Shown: piece after piece, positions 1 through 22,170 of the stretch
Numbering within the stretch: position 1 is the stretch's first letter
Layout of the letters: each line of letters starts with the position of its first letter
Origin: Candidatus Hermodarchaeota archaeon
GTDB lineage: Archaea; Asgardarchaeota; Lokiarchaeia; Sigyniarchaeales; SOKP01
Reading direction: 5' to 3'
DNA length: 22,904 bases
Assembly: GCA_048885535.1 (NCBI GenBank)
Contig: JBHLLO010000045.1
Span: forward strand, 1 to 22,904
Position numbers and translations under genes: made by a program
The notes under the pieces: generated by a model
The model's database searches: none
What the model saw: only the letters and a program-made list of their open reading frames with translations
What the model was told of the DNA's origin: nothing

Positions 1-1610
1 ATAATGAATTAGAAAATAAGAGGATAATAGACCTTAGCTGTGGATGTGGTAGCTTTCTAAATCAAGTTATAAAAGTTAAGATTGAATATTATCTTAATAA
101 ATTCAATTTAAAAGCGATATCAGATCTTTCGATTGAGCAAGTTAAACTAATTATTAAAGAAATTCAAGAAAATGTATATGGTTTAGACATAAATTCTTTA
201 GCTTGTATTTTATGTTGTATAAATCTCTACTTTTCTTTATATGAATTAATTAATATTGTAATACGAAATGATCCTGAATATGAAATTCCAAGTTTGAAAA
301 TTCATAATATTAATGCACTTGAGTTTTCTAAATTTAATAACTTTGATTTTGTTGTGGGAAATCCTCCTTATATATTTTTAAGAGATATTGATCAAGAAGA
401 GAAGAATTTAATTGAGTATGGTAATTTTGATACAATCTCAGGCCAATATGATTATTATCAAATTTTTATTGAATTAGGTATTAAAGTTTTAAGAAATTCT
501 GGATATCTAGGCTACATTTTACCTGATTCCCTTTTAGCTCTTTCAAATCGAAGAGTAATAAGAAAGTACATATATGTTAACACAAAGATCAAAGAATTGT
601 ACTACATTGGACAAAGTTTTGATGATCCAGTTGTATCAAACGTTATAGTAATATTGCAGAAAGAAAACGATGAGATTGAACGACTTGAGAATAAGATACT
701 CCTTAAGAATCGATTAGATAAAAATGAAAAGTTGATTAGATCTATACCACAAATGGTTTTAAAAAAGTGGGATTACAATTTTTTAATTAATTTAGATGAC
801 AGAGATATGCATATTCTTGACTATCTTAATTCTAACTTCCTAAATCTTAAAGAAATAAATATAAAACCGGATTATAATATAAAAATATTTAGAGGAGTAG
901 AATTAGGAAAAGAAGGAAAAGTATTATTTTGTAAAAAATGCGAAAAATACATTCCAATGCCAACAAGGAATAAAATTTGTAAAGATTGCAATTCAATCTT
1001 AAATTTTGATAATTTCGAACGAATTATTGTTGATAAAGTTCCTCGAGGATTAGAAAACCAATATAAACTCTTCCTTTTTTCAATGAGTAGATACCAGTCA
1101 AAAAAATATAAATATATTAACATTAAAAAGAAGGGAATAAATTATAAGAATTTAGAGGATTATGAAGATAGAATAGTTATACGGCAATTAAGCCAAAATA
1201 ATATGATATGCGCTACGTACGATAAATATTCTCTAACTTCTCAATCCTTTTACAATTTGAAAATTCTTAAATCTTCTTTATCCGAGATTAATCATTATTA
1301 CTTGCTAGGCCTAATAAATTCACAGTTACTATCTTATTATTTTATTAAAATGTTTGGCTCTTACAAAAAATTATTTCCAAGGATTCTGATTGAAAAAATT
1401 GAAACTTTACCAATAGCTTTGCCTGAAAATGCTGAAGAGAGCCTTATTGGTAAAGAAATTCAGGAATGTGTTAAAAGGAGATTATTACTTGGTAATTCTA
1501 ATAATGACGAAGCATATAATTTTGAGAAAAATATTGATTCTTTAGTTTTTAAGTTATACAAGATAAGAGATAAGGACAAATTATACATTTCAAAGTTCTT
1601 TACAAACTAA
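1..1610 (+). CDS. N6-adenine DNA methyltransferase (gamma class, Eco57I/TaqI-like) with C-terminal specificity domain; 5'-truncated by the window edge
   Basis: The frame is open from position 3 (NELENKRIIDLSCGCGSFL = SAM-binding motif I; YGLDIN), so the real gene starts upstream of the track's 294 start. Catalytic motif VVGNPPY, DYYQIFIELG and the TaqI_C-like YLLGLINSQLLSYYF follow. There is a CKKC...CKDC insert. Confidence 0.85.
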   Translation, partial: NELENKRIIDLSCGCGSFLNQVIKVKIEYYLNKFNLKAISDLSIEQVKLIIKEIQENVYGLDINSLACILCCINLYFSLYELINIVIRNDPEYEIPSLKIHNINALEFSKFNNFDFVVGNPPYIFLRDIDQEEKNLIEYGNFDTISGQYDYYQIFIELGIKVLRNSGYLGYILPDSLLALSNRRVIRKYIYVNTKIKELYYIGQSFDDPVVSNVIVILQKENDEIERLENKILLKNRLDKNEKLIRSIPQMVLKKWDYNFLINLDDRDMHILDYLNSNFLNLKEINIKPDYNIKIFRGVELGKEGKVLFCKKCEKYIPMPTRNKICKDCNSILNFDNFERIIVDKVPRGLENQYKLFLFSMSRYQSKKYKYINIKKKGINYKNLEDYEDRIVIRQLSQNNMICATYDKYSLTSQSFYNLKILKSSLSEINHYYLLGLINSQLLSYYFIKMFGSYKKLFPRILIEKIETLPIALPENAEESLIGKEIQECVKRRLLLGNSNNDEAYNFEKNIDSLVFKLYKIRDKDKLYISKFFTN

Positions 1611-2225: not shown

Positions 2226-3209
2226 GTGAAGACTTTGGAAGGACTTCCAAACATTAATCTTATTACATCATTACTAAAAAATTATATGTATGAAGTTGAT
2301 GGCGCTGCAGCTGTTGCGTTGTGTGATAGAGACGGTTTTATAATAGCTTCTGAAAGTAAGGAGAAGGAAAACGAAGATTCAGATTCTATTATTGGAGCAA
2401 TTTCAGCATTCTTAGATATCTATATTGATCGTATAAAAAGTGAATATAAGACACAAAGCAATTTTTTCAATATCACTTCGATGCAAAACAGAAAGTTTGC
2501 ATACTGTTCGATGGGACACCATTCAATCTTAACTACAATTGCAGATCCTTCCACTTCAGATGTTGAGCTAAAGGTATATTCTGAACACATTGCAAGTAAA
2601 ATTGAACTGTTATTAGAAGGAAATGAAAATGTATCAATTGAAATCCCTGAAATTATAAGAGTTTTATCCAAAAGAAGAGAAGGGAAATTGCCGAAAGGAC
2701 AATTTACGGCTAAACTTATTCTGACGGGAGATTTTAAAGTTGGTAAAACGTCCCTAATAAAAAGATTTGTTGAAAATAGTTTTAAAGAAAGTTATATCAG
2801 CACGATTGGAGTTGAAATCTCCAAAAAGTCAATAATTATGGACGAAGAAACTAAATTGAACTTCGTCCTTTGGGATATTGGAGGTCAAATTGGACAAATA
2901 AGACCTTATAGGCAAAGGTTCTATGATGGAGCAAATGCAGCATTTATAGTCGTTGATAGAACGCGAAGCCATATAGAGAGCATAAAGTTTTGGCACAAAG
3001 ATATAAAAGAGTCAGTTCCAAATCATATTCCAATAGTATTAGTAGGCAACAAATCAGATTTACAAGATCAGATTGCAATTACAGAAGAACAATTAAAGAT
3101 TATTTCAAAGGAGTTAGATCTTCATTATATTGTTACCTCAGCTAAAACAGGGGAAAATGTAAACGAAGCATTCCTTTATATTGCTTATAGATTTATAGAG
3201 AAAGTATAA
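2226..3209 (+). CDS. Roadblock/LC7-like domain fused to a Rab-like small GTPase (eukaryotic signature protein)
   Basis: N-terminal VDGAAAVALCDRDGFIIAS resembles roadblock/MglB. The C-terminal part has all G motifs: GDFKVGKTS (G1), STIGVE (G2, Rab-like), WDIGGQ (G3), GNKSD (G4), TSAK (G5). There is no C-terminal Cys prenylation motif. Confidence 0.88.
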   Translation: MKTLEGLPNINLITSLLKNYMYEVDGAAAVALCDRDGFIIASESKEKENEDSDSIIGAISAFLDIYIDRIKSEYKTQSNFFNITSMQNRKFAYCSMGHHSILTTIADPSTSDVELKVYSEHIASKIELLLEGNENVSIEIPEIIRVLSKRREGKLPKGQFTAKLILTGDFKVGKTSLIKRFVENSFKESYISTIGVEISKKSIIMDEETKLNFVLWDIGGQIGQIRPYRQRFYDGANAAFIVVDRTRSHIESIKFWHKDIKESVPNHIPIVLVGNKSDLQDQIAITEEQLKIISKELDLHYIVTSAKTGENVNEAFLYIAYRFIEKV

Positions 3210-3366: not shown

Positions 3367-4236
3367 ATGGGTTTTTCTATAAAAGAGTTAACGTATAAAG
3401 GGAGATATCTATTATATTTAACTGAACAAGAGATGGCGGGTCCATGGTTTAGCTTTAAGCTAAAAGGTAAAAAAATTGGCGTAGTACCTATAATTCTAAA
3501 AAATATTGAACCCACTCCAATATACAAAATGGTAAATAGCCGAACTGGGACGTTGATCGATCGAATCACATTAGATTTTGATATTAAAGAGTATTTAAGA
3601 AAATTAATGAAAAAAGGAGTAATAGAACCTTTATCATTAACAAAACGCCACTCTCTGATACGATTGTACATTGATGTATTTAATCGTCCAAAAGTTCCGT
3701 ATATTAATACATTTTTCACACTAAAAAATATTTCAGATTATGATTTAATTGATTTCTCTATGTATTTTATATTTGACTTTGATATCAATGGTTTAGATGG
3801 ATTCGATAATGATTTTTCGGGATACGATGAAGAAAATGATATATTATACCAATATGACGATACAGGATTATATGCGGGTTTCTCACCAATATCGAGATCA
3901 ACAAACTTTGAGACTTGCTTAACAAAAGATTTTAATATTGATAACCTAAAACTTAATTTAACAAATACACTTCATGATGGAGCGGGAGAAATCTTATCAG
4001 CATTACAAATTAAATTTCAAACATTAACCCCTGATCATACATTTCAAACAGTACTAACAATATCTGGAGGACTAAATAAAGAAGAATTAATACAAAATAT
4101 CAAAGAAGGGAAGGTAAATGCTATTAAATACCTTTCCCAAGTTAACAGATCTGTTAAGTCAGAGCAAAGAAATCAGCAGGAGGAAGCTTTTTTGAAAATA
4201 AATCTTCAAGAAGGAGTTGATTGTAACCAAGATTAA
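3367..4236 (+). CDS. Hypothetical protein (289 aa)
   Basis: Long ORF with a typical composition. It has an acidic, beta-rich central part (FIFDFDINGLDGFDNDFSGYDEENDILYQYDD), but I recognise no family with confidence. Confidence 0.75.
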   Translation: MGFSIKELTYKGRYLLYLTEQEMAGPWFSFKLKGKKIGVVPIILKNIEPTPIYKMVNSRTGTLIDRITLDFDIKEYLRKLMKKGVIEPLSLTKRHSLIRLYIDVFNRPKVPYINTFFTLKNISDYDLIDFSMYFIFDFDINGLDGFDNDFSGYDEENDILYQYDDTGLYAGFSPISRSTNFETCLTKDFNIDNLKLNLTNTLHDGAGEILSALQIKFQTLTPDHTFQTVLTISGGLNKEELIQNIKEGKVNAIKYLSQVNRSVKSEQRNQQEEAFLKINLQEGVDCNQD

Positions 4237-4346: not shown

Positions 4347-5567
4347 CTAACTAAAGATATTTTGGATCTGGAACTTCTCAGATATTATTTCATTGAATAA
4401 GAATGACTGAAGTTTCTTTTTAAAATTATTTGTTTGTAAATAACGTTCGAAATGAACCTTGATTTTATCGTATACAAGAGGATTTGAATTAATTACTATA
4501 ATATAATTATCAAATTCTTCCCAATCTAACTTTTTCTTCAGATAGTTTTGAACAGTATTCTCTTCTAATTTGGAGTTTATCTCCTTTTCTAATTCCTCTT
4601 TATTTAAATTATTATTTTCGATTAAAAAATAATCAATTATTATTTTTTGTTTGTTTTGATTCTGAAGGATGATTATTCCCTTTTTCTTTTGCTCCTGGTA
4701 AACGAAGTTTATTACATTGTTGTTTGTTTTTTGAAAGAGTGTGTATAAAAGATATTGAAAATCTTTAAATTCTCCTACTTTAGCGCCTTCAATCTTAGTC
4801 TGGATTAGTGATTGAAAATCTTTATTAATTTCATATCCTATACTTTTACGAAATAATACCTTCGCCACTTTCAGTGAGGTACCAGAACCAACGAAGGGAT
4901 CCAAAATAGTATCTCCAATAAAGGAGAACATACGTATTAATCTGTAGGGTAATTCATCTGGAAACATAGCTATATGTTCTTTTTGTATTATCCCAGGAAA
5001 TTTCCAATGCCCAACAAACCATTTTTTCCATTCTGTTAGAGAAATTTTTGACATCTCTTTGATTTTTAAATCAATTTTTCTTCCTTTCCCGAAAGGTTTT
5101 TTAAAAATTAAGATATGTTCATAATCATAAGTTAATAATCCGTTACGGGGATAATAGATTGACCCCATTAAAGAACAACCTCCTGTAGTATTAGTCGTAC
5201 TAACTTTTTGCCAAATAATATCACCAAGATAATCAAAACCTATTTTTTGGCAATCCTCAATTATTTTACTAGCAATTGATAATATGCGATATCTTCCGTA
5301 TTCTGTAGTCCTAAGATATTGGTCTCCTACATTAATTATCATCCTACAATGCGGTTCCAAAACCCGAAAGCATTCAGTCCATACATTTTTAAGCCTTTGA
5401 AAATAATCCTCAAAGGAGTCAGAAAATCCTATTTGAGATATCGAACCATAATCCTTTATTTTACCATAAGGAGGTGATGTTAGTATTAATTGAATTGAAT
5501 TATCATTAACTTCATTCATTAATTCAGAGCTTTTAAAGTAAATTTTGGGTTCTTCAATATCAAACAT
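4347..5567 (-). CDS. N4-cytosine/N6-adenine DNA methyltransferase (beta class) with C-terminal extension
   Basis: Catalytic motif LILTSPPY precedes SAM-binding motif ILDPFVGSGT (beta order), with HIAMFPDELPYRLI and GYEIN. A GGAG site lies upstream on the minus strand. Confidence 0.88.
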   Translation of the reverse strand: MFDIEEPKIYFKSSELMNEVNDNSIQLILTSPPYGKIKDYGSISQIGFSDSFEDYFQRLKNVWTECFRVLEPHCRMIINVGDQYLRTTEYGRYRILSIASKIIEDCQKIGFDYLGDIIWQKVSTTNTTGGCSLMGSIYYPRNGLLTYDYEHILIFKKPFGKGRKIDLKIKEMSKISLTEWKKWFVGHWKFPGIIQKEHIAMFPDELPYRLIRMFSFIGDTILDPFVGSGTSLKVAKVLFRKSIGYEINKDFQSLIQTKIEGAKVGEFKDFQYLLYTLFQKTNNNVINFVYQEQKKKGIIILQNQNKQKIIIDYFLIENNNLNKEELEKEINSKLEENTVQNYLKKKLDWEEFDNYIIVINSNPLVYDKIKVHFERYLQTNNFKKKLQSFLFNEIISEKFQIQNIFS

Positions 5568-5723: not shown

Positions 5724-7241
5724 ATGAGCAAGACTTCAAAAGTAGATCAAGTAATACTAATTATTCTCGATGATATTCGTTCTTCTCTATTATTTGACTT
5801 AATGGAAAAACGTAAACTTCCAAATTTATCCCAACTTGCTAAGAGTGGTATTAACTCTAGAAATTGTATTACTTCCTATCCAAGTATTACTTTTCCTTGT
5901 TATAGTAATATCGTTATTGGTGCTTATTCAGGTTATTTCCCTAAGGAAGGTAGTGCTGTTCCTCTATATCACTGGTTAAATAGAAAGGATCCGCCCTCTA
6001 CCGATTCTAAATGGCCTTTCTATCGTAATTATGGAGGGGGAATAGATTTGTTAAGGATAAATAAGGATATAGGAAAAAATGTTAAAACTATTTATGAACA
6101 AGCAGGAAAAGGGAATTTTCTCAGTGCTACTAGCTTTTTACATAGGGGGTCTTATTTTGCCCTTTCCCAAAATTACTATGATGTACAACCTATATTTCAA
6201 AATATAGAAATTGCATATAGAAATCCTAGTACCTTTTTTCAAGAAAGAAATGTTCCAATAATTACTGTTGGTTATATTCCTCATACTGACGATATTATGC
6301 ATATGAAAGGATTTGACCATTTGGAATATATAAATTTGATAATCGAATGTGATAAATATCTCGGTTCTCTCATTAAAACCCTAAAAGATACAGGATATTA
6401 TAACAGCACGGCAATTGCGATAATTACAGATCATGGTAACTACAGGGCAGAGAACGTTATAGATCTCGCGCCATTTTTTCATCAAAATAGGTTAATTCCT
6501 TATAATCCTAAAGATGGTTCTGGAGATTTTGACTTAAATGCTGGATCTATGTGTTTTTTCAATTTTCAAGGTGATAATTGGCATTATCATCCATATGTTA
6601 AACAATTAGAAAACTACAAAATAAGTGGAAAAGGGGGTACAAAAATTAACCTATTTGAGACACTTTGGAAAATACCAGGAGCAAAGTTAATGTATTACAG
6701 AGACGATAATAATAAAGCAGATAAAGGAATGATTCATCTTCTCATGAAGAGTGATAAAACTAAAAGTCTTTCTAAAGCAATTATAGAATATGAAGGTTTT
6801 GGAAAAGAGCAGAAAACTAAATATCGTTATAATAATAAAGATGTATTCAATTATGATGATAACATAGAACAAAATAAAGCCTATACAATTGACCAATGGT
6901 TGAAGTTAACAAATCACCTTGATTTTCCTTTAGTTGTCGATCAGATTCCTCGTTACTTTAAAAATCCAAGATCTTGTGATATAATAATATCAACATTGGG
7001 TTCTCATGTATTTCATTATGAGCATGGTGAAACCAAGAGTCAATCTCTATTTTCGCATGATATTGGTCTTAGAAATTCAATGGTAGTTCCTTTTATAATA
7101 GGAGGTTCTTCAAATATTCCTTCATTAAATTTACCGTATTGTAAAACAACAGATATGGTTCCTACTTTATTAGACTTACTAGGAATAAAACCAGATAAAT
7201 CTGTTGTAGGTGAGTCCGTATTGAAGTACAAAATCGATTAA
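5724..7241 (+). CDS. Alkaline phosphatase superfamily, nucleotide pyrophosphatase/phosphodiesterase-like
   Basis: ILIILDD (metal Asp), TSYPSITFP (Thr nucleophile), TDDIMH, ITDHG, SHD and the C-terminal TTDMVPTLLDLLG. Confidence 0.82.
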   Translation: MSKTSKVDQVILIILDDIRSSLLFDLMEKRKLPNLSQLAKSGINSRNCITSYPSITFPCYSNIVIGAYSGYFPKEGSAVPLYHWLNRKDPPSTDSKWPFYRNYGGGIDLLRINKDIGKNVKTIYEQAGKGNFLSATSFLHRGSYFALSQNYYDVQPIFQNIEIAYRNPSTFFQERNVPIITVGYIPHTDDIMHMKGFDHLEYINLIIECDKYLGSLIKTLKDTGYYNSTAIAIITDHGNYRAENVIDLAPFFHQNRLIPYNPKDGSGDFDLNAGSMCFFNFQGDNWHYHPYVKQLENYKISGKGGTKINLFETLWKIPGAKLMYYRDDNNKADKGMIHLLMKSDKTKSLSKAIIEYEGFGKEQKTKYRYNNKDVFNYDDNIEQNKAYTIDQWLKLTNHLDFPLVVDQIPRYFKNPRSCDIIISTLGSHVFHYEHGETKSQSLFSHDIGLRNSMVVPFIIGGSSNIPSLNLPYCKTTDMVPTLLDLLGIKPDKSVVGESVLKYKID

Positions 7242-7276
7242 CTCTTTTTAATTGTTATTTATTTTTTCTTTGAAAA

Positions 7277-7284
7277 TTTATTAA
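7277..7284 (+). promoter_or_regulatory. Putative BRE/TATA box for the GH38 gene
   Basis: GAAAA followed by TTTATTAA, about 60 nt before ATG 7342, with an SD-like GAGGA at 7329-7333. The AT-rich background makes this weak. Confidence 0.35.
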
Positions 7285-7341
7285 ACCATATTTAATTATA
7301 ATCAAAACAAATTAGGCGTTTTAGATAAGAGGATTAAGATA

Positions 7342-10155
7342 ATGAAATCAAAAAATATAATTATTGTTCCGGAAACTCATTGGGACCGTGAAGCCTCATG
7401 AAACTTCTTCTTCAGGCACGATTGGTATCTTCCCTTTCAAGAGTATAGAGCGCGTCTTGTTATTATGATAGATAAGCTCTTAGACATTTTAAAAAATGAT
7501 CCTAATTATACTAATTTTGCTCTTGATGGACAAGTTATCCCCCTTGAAGATTATCTTGAGGTTCGTCCCGAAAAAAAAGAGGAAATCATGAAATATGTGA
7601 AGGAAAAAAGACTATCTATTGGACCAAGTTATGTTCTACCTGATGAATTTTTGATTAGTGGAGAATCTCTGATAAGAAATTTATTAATTGGTCATCAAAT
7701 CTCAAGGAAATTCGGGAGAGTTATGAAAGCTGGTTATATTCCTGATCCTTTTGGCCATATAGCTCAATTACCTCAGATTTTGAAAGGATTCGAGATTCCG
7801 TCATTTATTTTTGAACGAGGTTTTGGAGATGAATTTGAAACCCAAAAGTTGAATATGGAATTTATATGGAATGCTCCAGGAAATGCAGCCTCTATTTTAG
7901 CTATCCATTTAATTTTAGGTTATGGATCGGTCGCAGATTTAGATTATTCAAAAAAGGATGGAGAGTATATCAAAGCTCTTGAAAAAGTAAAGGATCGTGT
8001 TTCTAAATTAGAGGAGTATACTGCTACTCCCATTATTTTACTTAATAATGGTTCAGACCATCATGAGGCTCATCCACAGATTCCTGAAATTATAAAATCT
8101 TGGAATAAAAGGCACCCTTATATTTTAATGGAACAAAATGATTTTGAATATTATATTAATAAAATCTTGGAATGTCAGCCAAAATTAAAGTTTTATCAAG
8201 GAGAACTAAGAGGAAGTAGATATTCGAATATTCTTGCTAGCGTATTCTCTACAAGGATTTGGATTAAGCAAAAAAATACAGAAATTGAACATTTGTTTGA
8301 AAAGTATACAGAACCACTTTCAACCATCACTTGGATTCTTGATAAATATAATGAATTCTCATATCCTAAGACTTATATTCAAGTAGGAATAAAATGGTTG
8401 ATTAAAAATCATCCTCATGATAGTATATGTGGTTGTTCAATTGATCAAGTTCATAATGAGATGAGGACGCGATTTGATTGGTCAGAACAAATAGGAGATG
8501 AGATTATAAAGAATTCCTTTCTATATCTAATTAGATTGATAAACTATGAGAAAAGCTGGACAAAGATTCCTCTTTTTGTCTTTAATCCACTGCCATGGAA
8601 ACGAAAAGATTTGGTTGAATTTAACATCATAAATGAATTTTTTGGATATATAACTTCCACTGACTTTAAAATCGTTGATTCAAATGAAGAAATCGAATAC
8701 CAATATATTAGAGTAAAAGAAGAACCAAGATTTAAGACAACGGCGAGTAAGAGCTATTTATGTACTTTTTTGGCAGATGTTCCAGCACTAGGTTATAAAT
8801 TATATTATATAATCCCCGGGAAAAAGGGTAAAACTTCTTTTGAAGAAAACGAACAATTCAAAATTACCCAAAACACCTTAGAAAATCAATTTTTCCTAGT
8901 TAGAGTAAATTTAAATGGGATGATCGACATCTATGATAAAAGAGGTAAAAAATGGTATGAAAAGCTATGCTTCTTCGAGGATGTCGGAGATTGGGGTGAT
9001 GAGTATGATTTTTCAGGTCCAAATGAAAATCAAACGGATCTAAAATTTACTTCAGAGGATCTTAATTTGTTAGGAATTGAACCATATATTAATGGTCCTA
9101 CCCAAAAAACGATAAAAGTCGACTTAAATCTTAACTTACCAGAATCATTATCGGAAGATAGGTTTAATAGAGAAAACATTTTAGTTTCAAATCTAATCAC
9201 TATCTACATAACTCTATGTAAAGATATTAAACGCATTGATTTTAGATTCGAATTAGAAAATAGTAGCAAAGATCATAGGATTAGGGTGTTATTTCCTACT
9301 GGAATAAAATCTGAAAAAGTAAACTGTGATGACCATTTCTATGTAATATCTAGAAATGTAGAAATACCAAAAGGAGAAAATTGGTATCAAAAGCCTCAAT
9401 TCACTAATTACCAAAAAGATTTTTTGGCAATTAGTGATAGTTCGAGAACCTTTGCCATCTTGAACAGAGGATTGCCAGAATATGAGGCTGTTAAAAATAC
9501 AGATGGCACTATAACCTTAGCTGTAACACTTTTACGTTGTATTGAGTGGCTATCTAGAGATGATCTCGCTACGAGAAATGATATAGCTGGTCCTGCATTC
9601 AACACTCCAGAAGCACAATGTCTTGGAAGTTATACTTTTAACTTATCATTGGTTATTGAAGAGCATAAGATTAGTTGGCTAGACTCAGAAATTCACGTTA
9701 AAGGAATGGAGTTTAACAATCCATTTAAAGTCTTATTCCTGAATATGCTTAAGATTCCCTTCAGATTGCCCAATAAGACTGTTCTTTTTCCTACTCATCG
9801 CATTATTGGTTTTGGATTGACAGAAGATAAAGCTTTAGAAACATATTTGCCACTTGAACTAAGTTTCCTAAAAATTACTAATAATAAAATACTACTCAGT
9901 GCGTTGAAAAAATCTGAAGAAAATAATTATTTGATTGTTAGAGTATATAATATATCTTCTGTCCCTCAAGAATCAACCTTAATATTTTGCAATCAAATTA
10001 AATTGAAGGAAGCAAAAATCGTAAATTTATTAGAAGAACCTCCCATTAATGAAATAAAAGCAACTGTTCAAGTTATAGATGAAAATGTTCTATTAGTCAA
10101 ACTACAAGCACATGTTATAGCTACTGTTAAAATAAAAACTAATAAAAGTCTATAG
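7342..10155 (+). CDS. GH38 alpha-mannosidase (MngB-like), join(7342..7392,7423..10155), 927 aa after removal of a 30-nt intron
   Basis: Exon 1 MKSKNIIIVPETHWDRE joined to exon 2 WYLPFQEYRARLV gives the canonical GH38 Zn-binding HWDREW motif. Also present are LDGQ, GESLIRNL, the nucleophile motif PDPFGH, NGSDH and HPHDSICGCS. The track's 7465 start misses the N-terminus. Confidence 0.9.
7393..7422 (+). other. Putative 30-nt BHB (tRNA-type) intron in the GH38 mRNA
   Basis: GCCTCATGAAACTTCTTCTTCAGGCACGAT contains an in-frame TGA (7399-7401). Central helix CGTG(7387-7390)/CACG(7417-7420), 3-nt bulges AAG and ATT, inner helix CCT/AGG. Cutting after the 2nd bulge nucleotide gives CGT GAA|TGG TAT (REWY). 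Confidence 0.85.
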
Positions 10156-10868: not shown

Positions 10869-11936
10869 ATGAAATTTGGAGAATATTTAAAAGTATATAA
10901 ACAGAACATCAATGAAGCTATAAAGGAAATTTTTGAAAAAAAAATCAGTAAATTAAATAATTCATTTCTTAAAGATTATTATTCTGAATTAAAGGATTAC
11001 TTCTTAGCTGGGGGAAAAAGAATTCGCCCTTTACTTTGTATCGCATCATATAATGCATTTAAAAAACAACAAGATGATAAAATTGTTCCTGCAAGTGTTG
11101 GTATAGAGTTTCTTCATAATGCATCCCTAATACATGACGACATTATTGATAAAGATGATTATAGGAGAGGGAACCCTGCTTTTCATTTTAGATTTAAAAA
11201 TTATCATAAAGGATATAATTTCAAAAAAACAACTGATATTGATTTTGGTAATTCAATAGGTATAATAGGTGGAGATACTGCATTCTTTTTAGGTTTAGAA
11301 GCATATTTTTTTAATGATTTTGAAAATGAGATGAATAATCGAGCTATTAACTTGTATGAACAAGCTTTCATAGATATTGCTAATGGTGTATTAATCGAAA
11401 TGGATATGGTAAATAGAGAAAAAATTGAAATGTCAGATTATATTGAAATGATTTCCTTAAAAACTAGCGCGCTAATAGAAAAGTCGTTGCTAATTGGAGC
11501 AAACTATTCTAAATTAGATAAAGATCATGAAAAGGATTTATCAACTTATGGAATAAATTTAGGTATTGTATTTCAGATAATTGATGATATTTTAGGGACA
11601 TTTGGAGATGAAAAAGTTACTGGAAAACCTACTGATGGAGATATTAGAGAAGGAAAAAAAACTTGCTTATTAATTGAAGCTTTAAATACCTTAGACTCTA
11701 AGAAGAAGAAAAAACTTGAATCTATTTTAAATAAAGTAGAAATTAATGATAATGATGTGGAAACTGTAAGGAATTTATTCCTTGAAGCTGATGTGGTTAA
11801 TTCTAGCAAAAAATTAGCAGAAAAATATTATCAAAAAGCTAAACTGGCTCTAGAAAATTTAAAAGATTGTATTAATCCTCCAGAATTTGAACTATTTGAG
11901 GATCTCTTAAATTTTGTTATGAATAGAACATATTAA
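10869..11936 (+). CDS. Trans-isoprenyl diphosphate synthase (GGPP synthase-like; product chain length uncertain)
   Basis: GGKRIRP, first Asp-rich motif HDDIIDKDDYRRG, GD, KT, second motif FQIIDDILG, GKPTDGDIREGKKT. It is adjacent to the mevalonate genes. Confidence 0.92.
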   Translation: MKFGEYLKVYKQNINEAIKEIFEKKISKLNNSFLKDYYSELKDYFLAGGKRIRPLLCIASYNAFKKQQDDKIVPASVGIEFLHNASLIHDDIIDKDDYRRGNPAFHFRFKNYHKGYNFKKTTDIDFGNSIGIIGGDTAFFLGLEAYFFNDFENEMNNRAINLYEQAFIDIANGVLIEMDMVNREKIEMSDYIEMISLKTSALIEKSLLIGANYSKLDKDHEKDLSTYGINLGIVFQIIDDILGTFGDEKVTGKPTDGDIREGKKTCLLIEALNTLDSKKKKKLESILNKVEINDNDVETVRNLFLEADVVNSSKKLAEKYYQKAKLALENLKDCINPPEFELFEDLLNFVMNRTY

Positions 11937-11960
11937 TTTCTCCAATATTGTTTTAAGCAA

Positions 11961-12209
11961 ATGACTGGATTTAAACTTCCCTTATTTTTATTATTCGGCA
12001 AAAGACCAGTAAAATTTATATCTACAGCTGACGGTGGAATGGATGTTTTAGCATTTAATTGGGAATCTGGTAAATTTGAAAGAGATATGAGCTATTTAAG
12101 TAAATATTTTAAGCATTCACCTGAAGTTGAGGAAGTTAACGAAACAAAATTCAACTCATATGTTGAAAAGTTATTGGAGGAGATTGAAAAAGAACACAAG
12201 AAAGTGTAA
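11961..12209 (+). CDS. Small hypothetical protein (82 aa)
   Basis: ATG-started ORF that fills the gap between the prenyl synthase and the convergent IPK-IDI2 gene, with a protein-like sequence (RPVKF...DGG.DV.AFNWESGKFERD). Confidence 0.7.
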   Translation: MTGFKLPLFLLFGKRPVKFISTADGGMDVLAFNWESGKFERDMSYLSKYFKHSPEVEEVNETKFNSYVEKLLEEIEKEHKKV

Positions 12210-12221
12210 GCGTTTAATTTA

Positions 12222-14114
12222 TCAAATTTGATGCGCCCATTGATTTAAATCCCCAAGTAAAACAATTTTATCCTTATTATTTTTAAGGCTTTCTATATTG
12301 TTTAAATTTAATAACCACATACAAGATTTTAATTCATGTTTTAAAGTCCTTATTTCCTTAATTGTATTAATTGTTGTATTGTTATTGTAATCCTCCCAAG
12401 CTGAAACAAGAAATTTATAAGCGAAACCTCCAATATCGGCTCCTAATATAATACTTTTTGCAATATCTAAACCATCTTTTAATCCTCCAGTAGCTATTAA
12501 TAATTTGCTTGTAACCGCTCTCGCATGTAATATACTAATGGGAGTTGGAATACCCCATTCTCTAAAAGTATCAGCGATTTTTCTAGTAAATACTTCATAA
12601 TCAGAATCATCTCTAAAAGCCTCAATTGCTGCAAAACTTGTACCCCCAGCTCCTCCTACATCGAAACCGTTAAATCCTAAAAGATCAAGTTTTAAAGCTA
12701 AATCTTTATCAAAACCAGTTCCTACTTCCTTTGCGATTAAAGGAATTTTTGCAACTTTTTTTATTTTCAAAAAATTCTCCTGAAAATTATGATATGAAAG
12801 GTCACCGTTTCGTTGAACAAGTTCATGTAAGGCATTAAAATGAATAGCCATTGCATCAGCATTGATCATATCTACGCATTTCTCAAATTCACTTTGTTTG
12901 AAATCTGGATCACTAATTTGTCCTATACCAATATTTCCAATAATAGGGATATTTGGAGCTACCTCTCGAACAATCTCAAATGAATCTATCGTAGATTGAT
13001 TTTCTAAGGCTATACGTTGACTACCTACACTCATAATAATTTTTTCTGATTCAGCAGCTAAAGCTAAAATTTTATTTAATGCTTTGGAAATGGGATGTCC
13101 TCCTGTTATTGCCGCTATACAAATAGGCGCAGAAATAGATTTGTTATAAAATCGAGTAGATAAATCAATATCATTAAAATCAATTTCAGGGAGAGGATGA
13201 TGTACAAATTTTATATCTTCAAAATAATTTTTTGAATGCTGAACGTTATATCTGAGCGGTATTTTTAAATGTTCTATTTTTCGAGAAAAAATCTCTTTTT
13301 GAATTGGAGTAGTTAAATCTGGTTTAATATTGGTAGATGTAATCTTTTGATTTTGTAACGCCTTTAGTATATAACTGTCTTTCAATCCGTTAATTAATTG
13401 GACAGGTATGTTCATTTCACTTATCTTTTTTATAATTTCAAGTTTTCCCTTAATCCCTCCGGTAACATCTATTTTTTCATCAAGTTTGGCTAGCTTTAAG
13501 TTATCTATTTCGCTAGTAGCTATTTCTGTAGCTAATTCTGTATGATCATTTTTTCTAATATATACTCCATCTTTCTCGATTGCAAAAATGACTTTAATAA
13601 TATTCTTTTGAAATCTCTTGCATAACTCTAAAATAATTTGATCACCTGAAAGTATTGAAAAAGAGTTATCTTTTGTAAAAAGAATATCCCCATAAAGTAT
13701 AGGAAGTATATCAAGATTTAACATTGAGTTGATAGGTTCAACTGATTTTAATAAAAGGGTATTCGAGTCCTGAATAAAAATAGTTGATGGTTGTACTGAA
13801 ATAGCAGGAAAATTTTTTTCAATAAATCGATTAATAATAAAAGAGTTAAGTTCATTCATCACTTTATGTGTTTTTGAAAGACCTGTTAATTGATCTCTTA
13901 TTAATGGATTGAAACCTTTAGATATTTGATATTCTTTTGCCATTGGATGACCAAATGATCCACCACCGTGAATAAGAATTAATTTTTGATTACTTTTTAT
14001 AATTTGGTCAATAGTATTATCAATGACATCTTCTCTTAAAGAGAATGGATCATCTTTGTCAGTAAGTAAACTACCACCTAATTTTAATAAATAAATTTTA
14101 TCATTTTTAAGCAA
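12222..14114 (-). CDS. ipk-fni: Bifunctional isopentenyl phosphate kinase / type 2 (FMN-dependent) isopentenyl diphosphate isomerase fusion
   Basis: The N-terminal half is amino-acid-kinase-fold IPK (KLGGSLLTDK, HGGGSFGH, SGD, DVTGGIKGK). The C-terminal half is IDI-2 (RKIEH, AITGG, VGSQR, HFNALHE, KEVG, GAGGTSF, TGG...DIAK). One continuous ORF with a TTG start. Confidence 0.92.
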   Translation of the reverse strand: MLKNDKIYLLKLGGSLLTDKDDPFSLREDVIDNTIDQIIKSNQKLILIHGGGSFGHPMAKEYQISKGFNPLIRDQLTGLSKTHKVMNELNSFIINRFIEKNFPAISVQPSTIFIQDSNTLLLKSVEPINSMLNLDILPILYGDILFTKDNSFSILSGDQIILELCKRFQKNIIKVIFAIEKDGVYIRKNDHTELATEIATSEIDNLKLAKLDEKIDVTGGIKGKLEIIKKISEMNIPVQLINGLKDSYILKALQNQKITSTNIKPDLTTPIQKEIFSRKIEHLKIPLRYNVQHSKNYFEDIKFVHHPLPEIDFNDIDLSTRFYNKSISAPICIAAITGGHPISKALNKILALAAESEKIIMSVGSQRIALENQSTIDSFEIVREVAPNIPIIGNIGIGQISDPDFKQSEFEKCVDMINADAMAIHFNALHELVQRNGDLSYHNFQENFLKIKKVAKIPLIAKEVGTGFDKDLALKLDLLGFNGFDVGGAGGTSFAAIEAFRDDSDYEVFTRKIADTFREWGIPTPISILHARAVTSKLLIATGGLKDGLDIAKSIILGADIGGFAYKFLVSAWEDYNNNTTINTIKEIRTLKHELKSCMWLLNLNNIESLKNNKDKIVLLGDLNQWAHQI

Positions 14115-14144
14115 ATTTAAAACCCTTTTAAAAATACATTTTTT

Positions 14145-15111
14145 TTAACCTATAGTTGTTTTCCATGTTGAAAATCCTTGGTTTTCAATTGCATTAGAGA
14201 TTTTCATCTGTGAATCTAGATCTGAAGTTAAGGCTATTACTAGTCCCCCCCGACCTGTTCCGGTCACTTTTGCTCCTAGTGCTCCATTATTTCTGGCAAT
14301 CTCTACAATTTTATCATTAATTTCACCTGATACAGTTAACATTTGTAAAAGAGTATGGTTTTGATTCATCAGTTTTCCAACTTTGTTCTTTTTTCCTTTA
14401 AGTAATGCTTTCTTTGCATTCATCGCAATTTTTTCATATTGTTTAAATATGGATTTGAACTTATCTTGATTTTTTTCTTTTAATCTTCGAACATCCGAAA
14501 CCACTTCAGCTGTAGAAGCTGTTATACCTGTATCAGCAATAACTAAGTTCATCTTTTCTGCAGATGTTAAACGATCAATTACATTTTTCCCTCCGTTTAA
14601 ATTCTTGACAAACCAGATTAATCCTCCATATGTAGATGCGGTATTATCAATACCAGAGGGTGTACCATGATATGCCATTTCTCCAGCATAGGCGGCATCA
14701 TTAATCTTTTCATCATTTAAGTTTAGATTAAACTCCTCATTAAGCGCACGAGCAAGGGAAGTGCATTGCGCGGCAGAAGCCCCTACTCCACTTGCGGCGA
14801 CTAAATCTCCACTAAAAGTAAGTTCAAGTCTATTATTAAGCGTATCTATATTTAAATATTCTATAACGTTTTTAATTGCTTGTTGTGCTTCATTAAACTT
14901 TGCATCTTTATAACCAGAAGTTGCTATCCTTTGATCGTTGACTATCCATCCTTTACCATCAACAACTTTAACAGTAGTAATTGTTTTAGAGCCTAAAGCG
15001 GAGGCGATAGCTGGGAGACCATAAACCACAAAATGGTAGCGCTTACCCCTGAAGTGGGAGATAAAATTCGCCAAATAGAATGGTTTTCCCATAACCTTTT
15101 CCAGTTCCCAT
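14145..15111 (-). CDS. mvk: Mevalonate kinase, complement(join(14145..15035,15067..15111)), 311 aa after removal of a 31-nt intron
   Basis: ATG 15111 is preceded by AAGGTGA. Exon 1 MGTGKGYGKTILFGE joined to exon 2 HFVVYGLPAIA gives GHMP motif 1 (GKxILFGEHxVVYG). Also present are SGVGASAA, HGTPSGID and GAKVTGTGRGG. The track's 15092 start gives a non-homologous N-terminus. Confidence 0.92.
15036..15066 (-). other. Putative 31-nt BHB (tRNA-type) intron in the mvk mRNA
   Basis: Minus strand TTTTATCTCCCACTTCAGGGGTAAGCGCTAC shifts the frame and contains a TAA in the exon-1 frame. Central helix GGCG(15072-15069)/CGCT(15041-15038), bulges AAT and ACC, 8-bp inner helix TTTATCTC/GGGGTAAG (with G-U pairs). 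Cutting after the 2nd bulge nucleotide gives GGC GAA|CAT TTT (GEHF). Confidence 0.88.
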
Positions 15112-15184
15112 AAATTTCACCTTATTTATCATAAAATTGTGTTATTTTCAAATATTAATTATTTTTTAAAATTTTGTAAAGATT

Positions 15185-15577
15185 TTAGTCTAAAATCTCA
15201 ACTAATCCTTCAGAACCATTAACAACAACATTATCATTATTTTTTATTTTGGTTATATCAATCATATCGATGCAAGGAATTTCGCTTATAATGCAACCCA
15301 CAGCAATAATAGTATCAATATTCTTGTTGATTATTGCTAAAGGAGCAGTATTATTTTTTTTCATTCGATACATTGTATAGGAACCTACAGTCGATCCTTT
15401 CCCAGTAGGAAATACTAAAATTTTCCCTGTTATAATTTGACCTTCTAGTTCATGACCCACTTCTACAACTTTTCCAGAATCGGGATCAACCCCGCCATAA
15501 AATGAAATTCCTTCACTTGTCACAATTGCTTTTCCCGATACGATACCTTTATATATTTTTCTTCCCTCTAATTTCAT
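15185..15577 (-). CDS. Phosphomevalonate dehydratase small subunit (aconitase X swivel domain, DUF126)
   Basis: ISFYGGVDPDSG, GKILVFPTGKGSTVGS and AVGCIISEIP. The start is moved to ATG 15577 (MKLEGRK), which overlaps the large-subunit stop as ATGA. Confidence 0.88.
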   Translation of the reverse strand: MKLEGRKIYKGIVSGKAIVTSEGISFYGGVDPDSGKVVEVGHELEGQIITGKILVFPTGKGSTVGSYTMYRMKKNNTAPLAIINKNIDTIIAVGCIISEIPCIDMIDITKIKNNDNVVVNGSEGLVEILD

Positions 15578-16767
15578 TTTAAAGCCTCCGCTACACACTC
15601 CTCAATTGTGCCAATTCTTACTTTAAATTTGTTTTTAGCTCTACCATAATAACAGGCCTTAGCAGAATCAACCATAATTCCTTTAAAACGCCCTTTGATA
15701 GGAGCAACAACACAACATGTATCTGCAGCAAATTTCGCTCCCGAACTTTCTATTACTTTCGAATATCCAGCCTTATCAGCAATGTTTTTAGTAGGTCGAG
15801 CAGTTGTTATCCAAAATTCTTTATTTACTTTCTTTCCTTCTAATAACCTTGCTATTAATGCAAGTTCATGGATTGAAGCATGAGGACACCCAATACTTAT
15901 GAAATCTATTTCAAGATCTTCATCAATAAGTTCCTTACGAGTCCTATCAAGATCCTCACCTGATATCTGAAAGGAAATCTCTTTCGGTTTAGGATATTTA
16001 TTATACTCGGGTGTTATTCCTTCCATATGAAACAATGCTGTTCCGCCATAAGTAGCAACTGAAGCACAAAATGCTTTGAGCTCTTCGACAGTTGCAGATG
16101 TTATACCCGCGATGTAAGGTATTTTTTGACCAACCTTTACCAATTTATCTCCAATAATTTTTCCTAACACTCCAAATTCATCAGTACCATTTATAGGTGA
16201 ATTAATATTGAATAGTACTTGACCATAACGGTTTTCGCCTATATGATAACCATAGTTTGGTGTTTTACCTGTTAAAGCAGCAGCCAAAGCACTTGGTCCA
16301 CCCTCACGATTCGTCCTAGCCCCTATAACTGAATTAGCATAACAAACAGCGCTACTTTCGGCCCATGCTATATGTTGTCCATAATGGGGAGTATTTCCAA
16401 TTAGATAAGGAGTACAAGAACATGTTGTGATAATTCCCATTTTAGCAAATGCGTCTATAGCACGATTTTGATTCTTAGCAAAATCCTCATCTATTCCTAA
16501 TGTTTCCCAATTTTCTATATCCATGCCCGCAGGATTTAAAGTTGTTAAAACTTTGACTTTCCCATCCTCAGCCATTTCATTGAGAAATTCTAATCCTGCT
16601 TCACCTAAATTGTCGTAGGAAACTCCAGCTATCTGAACACTATACACATCAATCATGTTTTCAGCATTAAAAATTTCTCCTAAGATTGTTAGTATTTCCA
16701 TAGATTTTTGAGCTGCTCTGCCGTAATTTCCATCCAACATGTCTTTTTCTTCAGGTTCCAAAAGCAT
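15574..16767 (-). CDS. Phosphomevalonate dehydratase large subunit (aconitase X catalytic domain, DUF521)
   Basis: AGVSY, TTLNPAG, TCSCTPY, AWAESSAV..ANSVIGARTNREGGP, IGCPHAS and DTCCVVAP. The likely start is ATG 16767 after a GTGA element; the track uses GTG 16776. Confidence 0.88.
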   Translation of the reverse strand: MLLEPEEKDMLDGNYGRAAQKSMEILTILGEIFNAENMIDVYSVQIAGVSYDNLGEAGLEFLNEMAEDGKVKVLTTLNPAGMDIENWETLGIDEDFAKNQNRAIDAFAKMGIITTCSCTPYLIGNTPHYGQHIAWAESSAVCYANSVIGARTNREGGPSALAAALTGKTPNYGYHIGENRYGQVLFNINSPINGTDEFGVLGKIIGDKLVKVGQKIPYIAGITSATVEELKAFCASVATYGGTALFHMEGITPEYNKYPKPKEISFQISGEDLDRTRKELIDEDLEIDFISIGCPHASIHELALIARLLEGKKVNKEFWITTARPTKNIADKAGYSKVIESSGAKFAADTCCVVAPIKGRFKGIMVDSAKACYYGRAKNKFKVRIGTIEECVAEALK

Positions 16768-16776
16768 TTTTATCAC

Positions 16777-18096
16777 TTAAACCGAATTAAAATATTTTTT
16801 TAAATTAACCTTAGGAAAGTATGCTTTATTGAAATCTTTCCCTTTAGTTAGTAATGGTTTAGTTAAGTCAAATCCAATTTTAGTTGTTAATTTTGTTCCA
16901 GGTTCAGCACTAGGGTCTAAACTACTTCCTGGTTCTTTATCTTTAATTATCATCCCTCTGTCTCCTTGAAAGCGAGTTGCCATTGCCCATTCTACTGATA
17001 ATGGATCATAAATATCAATATCTTCATCAACTACAAATACATGTTTACAACTACTGTGACCTGCAAAAGCACCTTGAATTGCCTTTTTACCATCATCTTC
17101 CGATTGTTTATTAATTTTCACAATTGCATGAAGCCATGAACATCCTCCTGGATTTATGTTTACATCCAAACATTTTACTCCTATATCATTTACCTTATTA
17201 AAAATAGTAGGCTCACGAGGCATTCCCATTAAAACCTTATGTTCTAATGCACCTGGCAATAATGCTTGCCAAATTGCATCTTTTCTATGGGTTATTTTCT
17301 TAACTTCAAAAATAGGTTCTTCTCTAACTACATCATATGTTTCTGTTAGGTCTACAAACGGTCCTTCACTGTGTTTCTCCTCCAAGTAGACTCTTCCTTC
17401 TAAAATGAATTCTGCTTCTGCAGGAACTAGCAAATCAACAGTTTTTGCCTTAACAACTTCAATTGGCTCTAAAGCGTTTGCAATTGTTAATTCATCAACA
17501 CCAAGGTCAACAGAAGTAGCTCCAGCAATGAGTATATTAGGAGGATTCCCGATACAAAATGCAACGTCTAATTCACCGTTCTTTTCTAAAAATTTATCAA
17601 AGTGTCGTCCCTTCACAACTCTAGTTGCAAATTTTTCCTTAGAAAACTGCATTGCTCTATGAAAATCCAAGTTTTGTCCATAGTCAGGATCTCTAGTAAC
17701 CACTACAGCTGAACTTATATAATTTCCTCCATCATTTTCACAGTGGAATAAAATTGGAATTTTATCCAAATCTACGCTCGATTCAACTATTTCTTGACAT
17801 GGAGCCGCTGAGATAACCTTAGGCTCTTTACTATTTAAAATCGCTTTGGAAAGCTTAGGTATTAATTCCGCAGGAGTGATATCAAAATATGAGGCAATTG
17901 AATTTTTAGTACAAAACATATTACCAACTACTCGGAAATTAGAATGCTTCACATGGTTAAAAAGTATAGGTGTTGGTTCTAATACTTTTAAAATACCTGA
18001 AATTTCTAACTTCTTTGAGACTTCTGTATCAACCTTCTTAAGAATACCCTTCTCATCAATTTTATTCAAATAGTCTCTAAATCCCACATTTGACAC
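16777..18096 (-). CDS. UbiD-family decarboxylase, probable anhydromevalonate phosphate decarboxylase
   Basis: DGGNYISS, FHR, VPAEAEFILEG, EGPF, VVDEDIDI...VEWAMATRFQ, GSSLDPS. It lies in an operon with the dehydratase subunits and HMGR. Confidence 0.88.
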   Translation of the reverse strand: MSNVGFRDYLNKIDEKGILKKVDTEVSKKLEISGILKVLEPTPILFNHVKHSNFRVVGNMFCTKNSIASYFDITPAELIPKLSKAILNSKEPKVISAAPCQEIVESSVDLDKIPILFHCENDGGNYISSAVVVTRDPDYGQNLDFHRAMQFSKEKFATRVVKGRHFDKFLEKNGELDVAFCIGNPPNILIAGATSVDLGVDELTIANALEPIEVVKAKTVDLLVPAEAEFILEGRVYLEEKHSEGPFVDLTETYDVVREEPIFEVKKITHRKDAIWQALLPGALEHKVLMGMPREPTIFNKVNDIGVKCLDVNINPGGCSWLHAIVKINKQSEDDGKKAIQGAFAGHSSCKHVFVVDEDIDIYDPLSVEWAMATRFQGDRGMIIKDKEPGSSLDPSAEPGTKLTTKIGFDLTKPLLTKGKDFNKAYFPKVNLKKYFNSV

Positions 18097-18169
18097 CTTT
18101 TAATAAATCTTTCAATAATAAAAAATAAATGAAGTAACTAAAGGATTTTATGAACCACTTTTTAAAAAA

Positions 18170-19450: not shown

Positions 19451-19600
19451 TTTATTACCACCAATTTATTTTTACATTAAGAAATTACATTTTAACTAAC
19501 ATTAATTTATTGGATATATTTACTAAAAATAATTATTAAATACTTATCATTATTAATATGAAATATTTCTTAAAATAAAATCTAAATCTCGTGATTAACA

Positions 19601-20164
19601 TTGATTCTTATAGCAATTACTGGTGCGACAGGAATCTCGATTGCTATTGAATTATTAAAGGTTTTAAGAGAACAAAAAGTCTCAACAGAGTTAATTATAT
19701 CAAAAGCAGCAGAATTAGTATTAAATAATGAAACAGAATTAAATTTATCAGAAATATATAATTTGGCTACTCAAGTGTATGATATTGACGATTTAGAAGC
19801 ACCTCCTGCGAGTGGGTCCCATAAGTTAGATGCTATGATCGTTGTACCTTGCACTATGAAGACTTTAGCATCTATTGCTCATGGATATGCTGATAACTTA
19901 ATCACTAGAGCTGCTGATGTTGCAATAAAAGAACAGAGAAAACTGGTTTTAGTAGTAAGAGAAAGCCCTTTGAGCGCAATCCACCTTGAGAATATGCTCA
20001 AACTCGCAAAACTGGGAGTAGTTATAGCACCTCCAGTTCCTTCCTATTATATCAAACCTAAAAATGTTCATCAACTAGTTAATCATATTGTAGGAAGATT
20101 ATTAGATCAACTGGATTTTGATATAGGGATAAAAAGGTGGAAAGATGAACAAATGGAAAGTTGA
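19601..20164 (+). CDS. ubiX: Flavin prenyltransferase UbiX
   Basis: IAITGATG, PASGS, VPCTMKTLASIAHG.ADNLITRAADV..KEQR.LVLVVRESPLSAIHLENM. TTG start after a GTGA element. Confidence 0.93.
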   Translation: MILIAITGATGISIAIELLKVLREQKVSTELIISKAAELVLNNETELNLSEIYNLATQVYDIDDLEAPPASGSHKLDAMIVVPCTMKTLASIAHGYADNLITRAADVAIKEQRKLVLVVRESPLSAIHLENMLKLAKLGVVIAPPVPSYYIKPKNVHQLVNHIVGRLLDQLDFDIGIKRWKDEQMES

Positions 20165-20471: not shown

Positions 20472-20573
20472 TTTAAGCAATTATACTAATTTAAAAGGAT
20501 TTTTAGACAGTTTATGGAGCTGCTTGCTATTTTTTACTCTTCTGTCGTTTTGACTTAAGGACGTCAAGGTAAG

Positions 20574-20581
20574 TTTATATA
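20574..20581 (+). promoter_or_regulatory. Putative TATA box for a leaderless transcript
   Basis: TTTATATA preceded by purines and ending about 25 nt before ATG 20607, which matches archaeal leaderless spacing. Confidence 0.45.
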
Positions 20582-20606
20582 GATTAAAAATTATAATTTA
20601 ATTATT

Positions 20607-21362: not shown

Positions 21363-21372
21363 TTTTTTTTTT
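21363..21372 (+). terminator. Oligo-T archaeal terminator candidate
   Basis: T10 run immediately after the stop codon at 21362. Confidence 0.45.
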
Positions 21373-22151: not shown

Positions 22152-22170
22152 ATATTAAATCTCAAAATAA

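Follow-up and report, generated by a model that had tools for sequence, protein, structure and literature searches.

An interrupted alpha-mannosidase gene

The stretch of DNA analysed here (the window, 22,904 nt) is contig JBHLLO010000045.1 (C45) of a Candidatus Hermodarchaeota archaeon genome, which comprises 3.09 Mb in 112 contigs with ~30% G+C and is 91.6% complete. The window carries a gene for a glycoside hydrolase family 38 (GH38) alpha-mannosidase, whose nearest public relatives are in metagenome-assembled genomes (MAGs) of Promethearchaeota, which are Loki-like Asgard archaea. Near its 5' end the gene is interrupted by a 30-nt insert at 7393-7422, a candidate archaeal bulge-helix-bulge (BHB) intron. 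Read from the ATG at 7342, the frame gives MKSKNIIIVPETHWDRE, followed by ten codons reading AS*NFFFRHD and then by WYLPFQEYR... up to the stop at 10155, and the insert splits the metal-site motif HWDRE|WY between the Glu and Trp codons. The first-pass annotation of this DNA had described a 30-nt insert with an in-frame TGA, a CGUG/CACG helix with the bulges AA|G and AU|U, an inner stem CCU/AGG that could be extended, and a single directly adjacent outer base pair. All of these elements are present in the sequence (Table 1); the extended inner stem forms seven of its nine pairs in the window, and the outer pair is C7386-G7424.

Table 1. Coordinates of the GH38 gene, its candidate intron and the predicted RNA elements in the window
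Feature	Position	Strand	Remarks
Exon 1, GH38 alpha-mannosidase	7342..7392	+	17 codons (MKSKNIIIVPETHWDRE); carries the putative metal-site residues His13 and Asp15
Candidate intron, 30 nt	7393..7422	+	in-frame TGA at 7399-7401; homologous 30-nt inserts in 15 other genomes
Exon 2, GH38 alpha-mannosidase	7423..10155	+	910 codons and stop; four Pfam GH38 domains
Possible distal outer helix, 5' strand GGGA	7382..7385	+	would pair with 7430-7433 (RNAalifold)
Closing base C of the sole adjacent outer pair, C7386-G7424	7386	+	C-G in 16/16
Central helix H, 5' strand CGUG (exon), 4 bp	7387..7390	+	partner 7417-7420, 16/16
5' bulge AA|G	7391..7393	+	predicted cut between 7392 and 7393
Inner stem-loop h'	7394..7416	+	stem 7394-7402 with 7408-7416, loop 7403-7407
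Central helix H, 3' strand CACG (intron)	7417..7420	+	pair counts and RNAalifold
3' bulge AU|U	7421..7423	+	predicted cut between 7422 and 7423
Possible distal outer helix, 3' strand UUCC	7430..7433	+	RNAalifold, 96-column alignment

Exon 2 matches the Pfam domains Glyco_hydro_38N, Alpha-mann_mid, Glyco_hydro_38C and Glyco_hydro38C2. The next open reading frame (ORF) with an ATG start, which is also the longest conventional ORF, begins at 7465, encodes 896 aa without the HWD residues, and matches the GH38 N-domain profile in Pfam only from position 30 of 270. The solved GH38 structures 3lvt and 2wyh can be aligned with an intron-less ortholog from its second residue onward, through ...sHWDREWYLPy.... 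In the cited portion of the work on SpGH38 from S. pyogenes, the catalytic metal ligands are His13, Asp15, Asp125 and His351 (PMC2815779). When ligands were mapped by the offset to 2wyh, in which query residue 2 falls on residue 24 of a chain that has a 22-residue tag, exon 1 residues H13 and D15 would correspond to the first two of the SpGH38 ligands. The annotation had claimed that the His and Asp of this motif bind the metal, that a protein starting at 7465 would lack them, and that splicing would yield 927 aa. The first claim agrees with the SpGH38 ligands, to which H13 and D15 are matched by alignment offset; the second holds in that the ORF at 7465 starts downstream of HWD; and the third is borne out by arithmetic on the predicted splice (17 codons of exon 1 and 910 codons of exon 2). 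Two further GH38 paralogs are encoded in the genome, both free of internal stops.

The insert recurs at one site in orthologs

A search of 61 related genomes with exon 2 as the query gave 30 orthologous loci. Eight of these, including the window, carry a 30-nt insert at the identical site, and the remaining 22 read uninterrupted ...HWDRE WY.... We also scanned the 161 genomes of the class with a degenerate pattern (HWDRE, 12-42 nt, WY), which matched in 17 genomes, and 16 of the matches are 30-nt inserts in this GH38 ortholog. The intron-bearing genomes belong to the genera g1 (eight genomes, including that of the window), g18 (one), g27 (one) and g28 (six). The 17th match, in genome G048 of another family, has a gap of 27 nt in a stop-riddled stretch without GH38 similarity by tblastn and was dropped from the counts. 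At that locus (L070, 1477-1569, minus strand), HWDRE is followed by 27 nt ending in ...GGCATGA and then by WY, with stops all around; the match may have arisen by chance, or the stretch may be what is left of the gene's 5' end, with a decayed intron.

Within the family, the ortholog was found in 98 of 135 genomes (E ≤ 1e-60), 16 of which carry the intron. Apart from copies cut by contig ends, an open frame that is short upstream (913-921 aa) occurs only in the 16 intron-bearing genes. We read the exact absence of the insert in 34 distinct intron-less sequences, all of which have GAR|TGG precisely at the predicted junction; other intron-less orthologs were judged by the length of the open frame, which fits absence of the insert. 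The comparison of orthologs at this site is therefore one of an uninterrupted junction in 34/34 intron-less sequences and same-site 30-nt inserts in 15 other species genomes. Every one of the 16 inserts holds one or two in-frame stops (two in four inserts), and TGA, TAA and TAG are all used. Protein identity to the window copy is ~60-83% among the intron-bearing rows listed. Exon 1 is open to the 5' cut in the seven intron-bearing relatives that were read that far, the start of which we take to be the ATG or GTG ~17 codons upstream of the cut; the other eight were read only from ten codons before the His codon. An upstream phosphodiesterase gene adjoins the ortholog in 32 of 50 loci (10 intron-bearing and 22 intron-less). 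A pattern scan of metagenomes found no 30-nt insert in an HWDRE...WY context among 119 stretches, among the matches listed, and no Rfam family matched positions 7000-7800 of the window at E values up to 1.

Covariation of the insert

We aligned the 16 inserts and their flanks without gaps and counted the BHB pairs over 224 cells, using shuffles (n = 500) and alignments slid by 1-3 columns as controls. Standard pairs were present in 94.2% of the cells, compared with 21-49% in the slid controls. Changes on both sides of a pair were seen at six pairs (18 cells), and the observed pairing, the double-change counts and the covariation score were each reached by 0/500 shuffles. The central 4-bp helix is paired in all 16 sequences; its intron strand reads CACG, CAUG or CGCG, and pairing with the exon strand CGUG is preserved in all of these through G-U wobble (GC/GU, UA/UG). 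The inner stem h', which consists of intron bases, has nine pairs with 91% of the cells paired and compensatory changes at six of the pairs. Each strand of the central helix is followed on its 3' side by a 3-nt bulge, AA|R on one strand and A-N|U on the other; the register of the two bulges is exact in 16/16, and their length is constant. At the 3' bulge the second base is U, A or G, while the first (A) and the third (U of the Trp codon) are fixed.

With the 42 central columns of the alignment as input, RNAalifold predicted the central helix, a 3-nt bulge and the nine-pair stem unaided. With 96 columns, it kept the inner stem and four distal pairs, 26-77, 27-76, 28-75 and 29-74, which can form in 16, 15, 16 and 16 of the 16 sequences, respectively. 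This distal GGGA/UYCC helix is without compensatory change because both of its strands are exon. A covariance model built from the 16 inserts had the GH38 site as its sole match in the genome (55.3 bits, E 6.8e-12; next score, 17.6 bits). As the model matches only once in 3.09 Mb, the element is not a dispersed repeat.

Constraint on the exon side of the junction

All 16 intron-bearing genes have GACCGTGAA as the last nine bases ahead of the junction. The same nine bases occur in 3/34 distinct intron-less genes, and the intron-less genes together use 20 synonymous versions of the stretch (Fisher 2e-10, not corrected for kinship). The Asp codon that holds C7386 is GAC in all 16 intron-bearing genes, and in the intron-less genes it is GAT in 20 and GAC in 14 (n = 34). 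Downstream of the junction, the third base of the Leu/Ile codon within the 7430-7433 strand is a pyrimidine in 16/16 intron-bearing and 17/34 intron-less genes. A pyrimidine at this position keeps UYCC able to pair with GGGA at 7382-7385, possibly as a distal outer helix. Over the last 12 codons of exon 1 in the 16 intron-bearing genes, the variable sites are distributed 3/1/8 by codon position. The variation is mostly at third positions and exon 1 therefore still evolves as coding sequence.

Predicted cut sites and splicing enzymes

In cbf5 introns the cut lies between the second and third bulge bases, as described in the passages cited from PMC2738675. We checked this cut rule on three clear hBHBh' motifs among the tRNA introns of the genome, two of which discriminate between the possible cuts; the third (Gly/Cys, 71 nt) is ambiguous. 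Cutting after the second bulge base gives a tRNA-Ser(tga) of 85 nt and a tRNA-Pro(tgg) of 74 nt, whereas cutting directly after the helix would give a Thr tRNA of 85 nt and a Ser tRNA of 74 nt, both at odds with the length classes. For the GH38 insert, cutting after the second bulge base yields GAA|TGG, encoding Glu-Trp as in 34/34 intron-less orthologs, and the alternative cut yields Asp-Trp. ARAGORN placed introns in 23 of the 34 tRNA genes of the genome, and its anticodon calls there are unreliable. At the tRNA genes C2 2184-2286, C42 557-647 and C10 62641-62746, the ARAGORN introns are 2 nt off the BHB cut sites and wrong anticodons are therefore named: Thr(tgt) and Leu(taa), where cuts at the BHB sites lead to Ser(tga) and Pro(tgg), in keeping with lengths of 85 and 74 nt. 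The third of these intron-bearing genes is ambiguous between Cys and Gly.

The genome encodes two homologs of the splicing endonuclease EndA, of 200 aa and 205 aa. The two subunits are encoded in the regions of contig C6 30393-30617 and contig C1 55964-56212. The 200-aa homolog has the Tyr, His and Lys positions; its closest match is chain 3p1z_B of the A. pernix endonuclease, with which it aligns gap-free through a stretch that we take to be the Crenarchaea-specific loop. In the 205-aa paralog the catalytic His is missing, and its matches to EndA structures are weaker. RtcB is also encoded (560.9 bits). Asgard EndA is described, in the part of the source cited, as an (alpha-beta)2 enzyme with the L1 loop and broad specificity (PMC5829648). 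From its gene content, the host appears to have an endonuclease fit for relaxed motifs as well as an RNA ligase.

Presence of the insert in the DNA and search for similar introns

Four DNA runs of a single study, of which one is possibly the source of the genome, yielded contigs that span 7133-7551 or more with 0-1 differences and without gaps. A joined form lacking the insert was not found in the contigs of those four runs that span the site. A look for RNA runs containing 6800-8800 of the window listed none. Two short contigs of run X1 (90 and 120 nt) match only 7348-7392, with 3-4 differences, and terminate precisely at the predicted 5' splice site. At the upstream loose end they are similar to the intron-less relative G018 (L007), and the same sediment is probably home to an intron-less relative.

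We also screened the whole genome, in a crude manner, for BHB geometry combined with a frame that is closed when unspliced and open when spliced, and compared the passes with frame-broken controls. The strict version of the screen gave 126 passes versus 122 and 127 in the controls, and it missed the GH38 intron. The cbf5 gene of the host genome is uninterrupted.

A probable BHB intron in coding sequence and the alternatives

We consider it highly probable that 7393-7422 is an archaeal BHB intron within the coding sequence of the GH38 alpha-mannosidase mRNA. This interpretation, which the first-pass annotation had put forward, is supported at the sequence level by the same-site inserts, the covariation, the exact junction, the frozen exon bases and the presence of the enzymes; cleavage, ligation and the spliced protein are predicted from these comparisons. 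In the transcript, the exon CGUG and the intron CACG would form the 4-bp central helix, flanked on opposite strands by the two 3-nt bulges. The inner side of the helix would be closed by the covarying intron hairpin and the outer side by one adjacent C-G pair, with the distal GGGA/UYCC helix possibly assisting the outer closure. A heteromeric (alpha-beta)2-type EndA would then cut after the second base of each bulge, and RtcB would join the exons to give ...HWDRE|WYLPFQ..., a protein of 927 aa with an intact metal site. In the spliced message, GACCGTGAA would be joined directly to TGGTATCTT, and the unspliced mRNA would give a peptide of only 19 residues.

Several observations speak against a BHB intron or soften the case for it. 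The 76-nt single-sequence fold is not more stable than shuffles (z = 0.60) and the minimum-energy structure differs from the BHB, so that one sequence alone proves little. Two of the nine inner-stem pairs are mismatched in the window sequence. In the 96-column alignment, RNAalifold favours an exon-exon pairing (columns 30-32 with 67-69) that competes with the central helix, and this pairing is without covariation because both strands are invariant coding sequence. The element also departs from a strict hBHBh' motif, which has an outer helix of at least 2 bp beside the 3' bulge. Here the next position places A opposite G; as only C7386-G7424 is adjacent, we file the element as a relaxed (HBh'-like) motif. 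The intron begins 51 nt after the start codon, and folding could face competition from a ribosome that follows closely. Because the 16 sequences are related homologs, the shuffle and Fisher figures overstate independence. Finally, the relaxed version of the genome screen, which does recover the GH38 intron, gave 244 passes versus 256 and 283 in the controls and hence no excess. The GH38 intron looks like a single case in this genome, not part of a visible class, and the screen leaves room for a few more coding BHB introns.

An alternative is that a small palindromic DNA insertion inactivated the gene, leaving either a pseudogene or a truncated protein made from the ATG at 7465, with exon 1 as a leader. 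The in-frame stop 19 codons into the gene, the 896-aa ATG-started ORF at 7465 and the unremarkable fold of the single sequence are all compatible with inactivation. However, both exons are kept open in 16 species from four genera, exon 1 varies mainly at third codon positions, and a protein from 7465 would be without the residues matching His13 and Asp15, two of the four SpGH38 metal ligands. Decay would neither freeze synonymous exon sites nor keep compensatory changes in the stem, and we regard inactivation as very unlikely.

Ribosomes might instead skip the insert by programmed translational bypassing, taking off from the GAA at 7390-7392 and landing 30 nt downstream, as in T4 gene 60 and the yeast mitochondrial byp elements, which are likewise short untranslated hairpin gaps with stops in coding sequence. 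The gap in the GH38 gene is short, contains a hairpin and a stop, and has a length that is a multiple of three in 16/16 genes; in two of the 16 (G088 and G023) the last intron codon is GAA or GAG, matching the Glu take-off. In a bypass of the T4 gene 60 type, the ribosome takes off from and lands on matching codons, and the take-off codon is immediately followed by a stop. In the GH38 genes, by contrast, the would-be landing codon is GAU in 14/16, a mismatch to GAA, and the codon after take-off is GCC, ACC or ACU in 16/16 and never a stop. Bypassing also leaves the BHB register unexplained: it predicts neither a helix between the exon CGUG and the 3' end of the insert, nor 3-nt bulges in exact register, nor variation that preserves wobble pairing. 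We hold it to be very unlikely.

Readthrough or recoding of the stop, for example with UGA as Sec or Trp, would add ten residues to the enzyme at this site. At 30 nt the insert keeps the frame, and Loki-like archaea have been reported to use selenocysteine. No single recoding rescues all inserts, however, because TGA, TAA and TAG all occur and four inserts have two stops. Moreover, the insert shows the evolutionary pattern of an RNA stem rather than of codons, and the motif it splits is contiguous in 34/34 intron-less orthologs and in the solved GH38 structures, which makes readthrough hardly credible. An assembly or binning artefact, conceivable for a fragmented MAG in 112 contigs, has a negligible probability in view of the gap-free contigs from four runs of one study and the homologous inserts in 15 other species genomes.

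History of the intron

To place the intron on a phylogeny, a maximum-likelihood tree was built from the first 450 residues of exon 2 of 50 distinct orthologs (16 intron-bearing, 34 intron-less), which remained of 64 loci after collapsing identical proteins; 16 loci that were partly covered or were distant bacterial homologs were left out. The intron state changes 12 times on this tree, with 11 changes forced by well-supported branches and a bootstrap range of 12-13. The intron-bearing genes form one group in 0/200 bootstrap trees, and the intron state shows no more clustering than labels that have been shuffled. The intron is present in two early-branching genes, those of G067 and G088. Because the inserts share site, length and consensus, the simplest reading is a single ancient gain with many exact losses since then, and the intron may also have been transferred between alleles. 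The intron of G005 (genus g1; L009/L080) is identical to those of G108 (L073) and G135 (L076) of genus g28, and the exon flanks of G005 and its position in the gene tree are g1-like. The identity could be due to retained ancestral sequence or to intron transfer.

We tentatively propose, as a possible rather than a probable history, that this is an old EndA-dependent mRNA intron, older than the divergence of the genera of the family, which has since been precisely deleted or re-acquired a dozen times. If so, Asgard archaea would be actively deleting or relocating protein-spliced introns of coding genes, for example via cDNA of spliced mRNA or by recombination between alleles, and production of the enzyme would depend, through the intron, on the capacity for tRNA splicing.

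Other genes in the window

Upstream of the GH38 gene, the window contains an Eco57I/TaqI-like N6 methylase gene that runs off the window start (3-1610, plus strand) and an N6_N4_Mtase DNA methyltransferase gene (4347-5567, minus strand). An unannotated ORF of 289 aa (3367-4236) lies between the two methyltransferase genes, and the region may be a restriction-modification island. A 327-aa ORF at 2226-3209 (plus strand) has a C-terminal small GTPase domain of the Ras/Roc/Arf type (residues 163-320), and its N-terminal ~160 residues have no Pfam match. Eukaryote-like GTPases of this kind are typical of Asgard archaea.

Downstream, an archaeal mevalonate and isoprenoid gene cluster occupies both strands of 10869-22904. 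Its members include a polyprenyl synthetase, a GHMP kinase, the large and swivel subunits of aconitase X, a UbiD-like decarboxylase, an HMG-CoA reductase, a UbiX-like flavoprotein and a weak match to the C-terminal part of HMG-CoA synthase. The cluster also contains a 630-aa ORF with amino-acid-kinase and FMN-dependent dehydrogenase domains, possibly an isopentenyl-phosphate kinase fused to a type-2 IDI. A 108-aa ORF (20145-20471, plus strand) matches the proteasome assembly chaperone-like PAC_bac family and, more weakly, PAC4.

Relation to known introns and implications

In the passages cited, the only confirmed BHB intron in archaeal coding sequence is that of cbf5 in Crenarchaeota (PMC7714728, PMC2738675), and introns in other archaeal coding genes were predicted but unconfirmed as of 2009 (PMC2738675). 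We found no literature report of a coding BHB intron in Asgard archaea or in a glycosidase or GH38 gene, though supplementary tables may list more predictions. The cbf5 pre-mRNA intron of Desulfurococcales and Sulfolobales (Watanabe 2002, Yoshinari 2006, Yokobori 2009) is, according to the text cited, likewise a short BHB-type intron located in coding sequence for the region of the catalytic site. Its motif is mostly relaxed or 'unconventional', it is processed by a hetero-oligomeric EndA that cuts between bulge bases 2 and 3, as proposed for the GH38 intron, and it has been lost secondarily in some lineages, as we read the history of the GH38 intron (all in the cited part of PMC2738675). In contrast to cbf5, the interrupted gene encodes a GH38 glycosidase rather than a pseudouridine synthase, and its hosts are Promethearchaeota (Asgard archaea) rather than Crenarchaeota. 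The GH38 intron is also far more scattered, with at least 11-12 changes among 50 orthologs, and its splicing is deduced from sequence comparison, whereas that of cbf5 was shown by experiment. Overall, the GH38 intron appears to work like the cbf5 intron, in a new gene and a new phylum.

Two other kinds of intron invite comparison. The BHB intron in the 5' untranslated region of Haloferax volcanii HVO_1309 is also an mRNA substrate of the archaeal splicing endonuclease but differs in that it lies in an untranslated leader, leaves the reading frame unbroken and has a euryarchaeal host, with cleavage shown in vitro, as far as the cited section describes it (PMC7714728). Asgard tRNA genes are heavily interrupted, according to the cited part of a preprint (bioRxiv 10.64898/2026.10.13.758758). 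The non-canonical tRNA introns of Asgard and TACK archaea share the motif, the cut rule and the enzymes with the GH38 intron. Unlike in these introns, the host RNA of the GH38 intron is an mRNA, the exon half of the motif also encodes Asp-Arg-Glu and Trp, and the outer helix is nearly absent.

The GH38 intron would extend coding BHB introns to the lineage closest to eukaryotes. Its 16 natural variants reveal which bases are constrained, and the rapid pattern of presence and absence could shed light on the way in which such introns disappear. Gene callers will mis-annotate the enzyme of at least 16 species genomes as a truncated 896-aa protein without the metal ligands.

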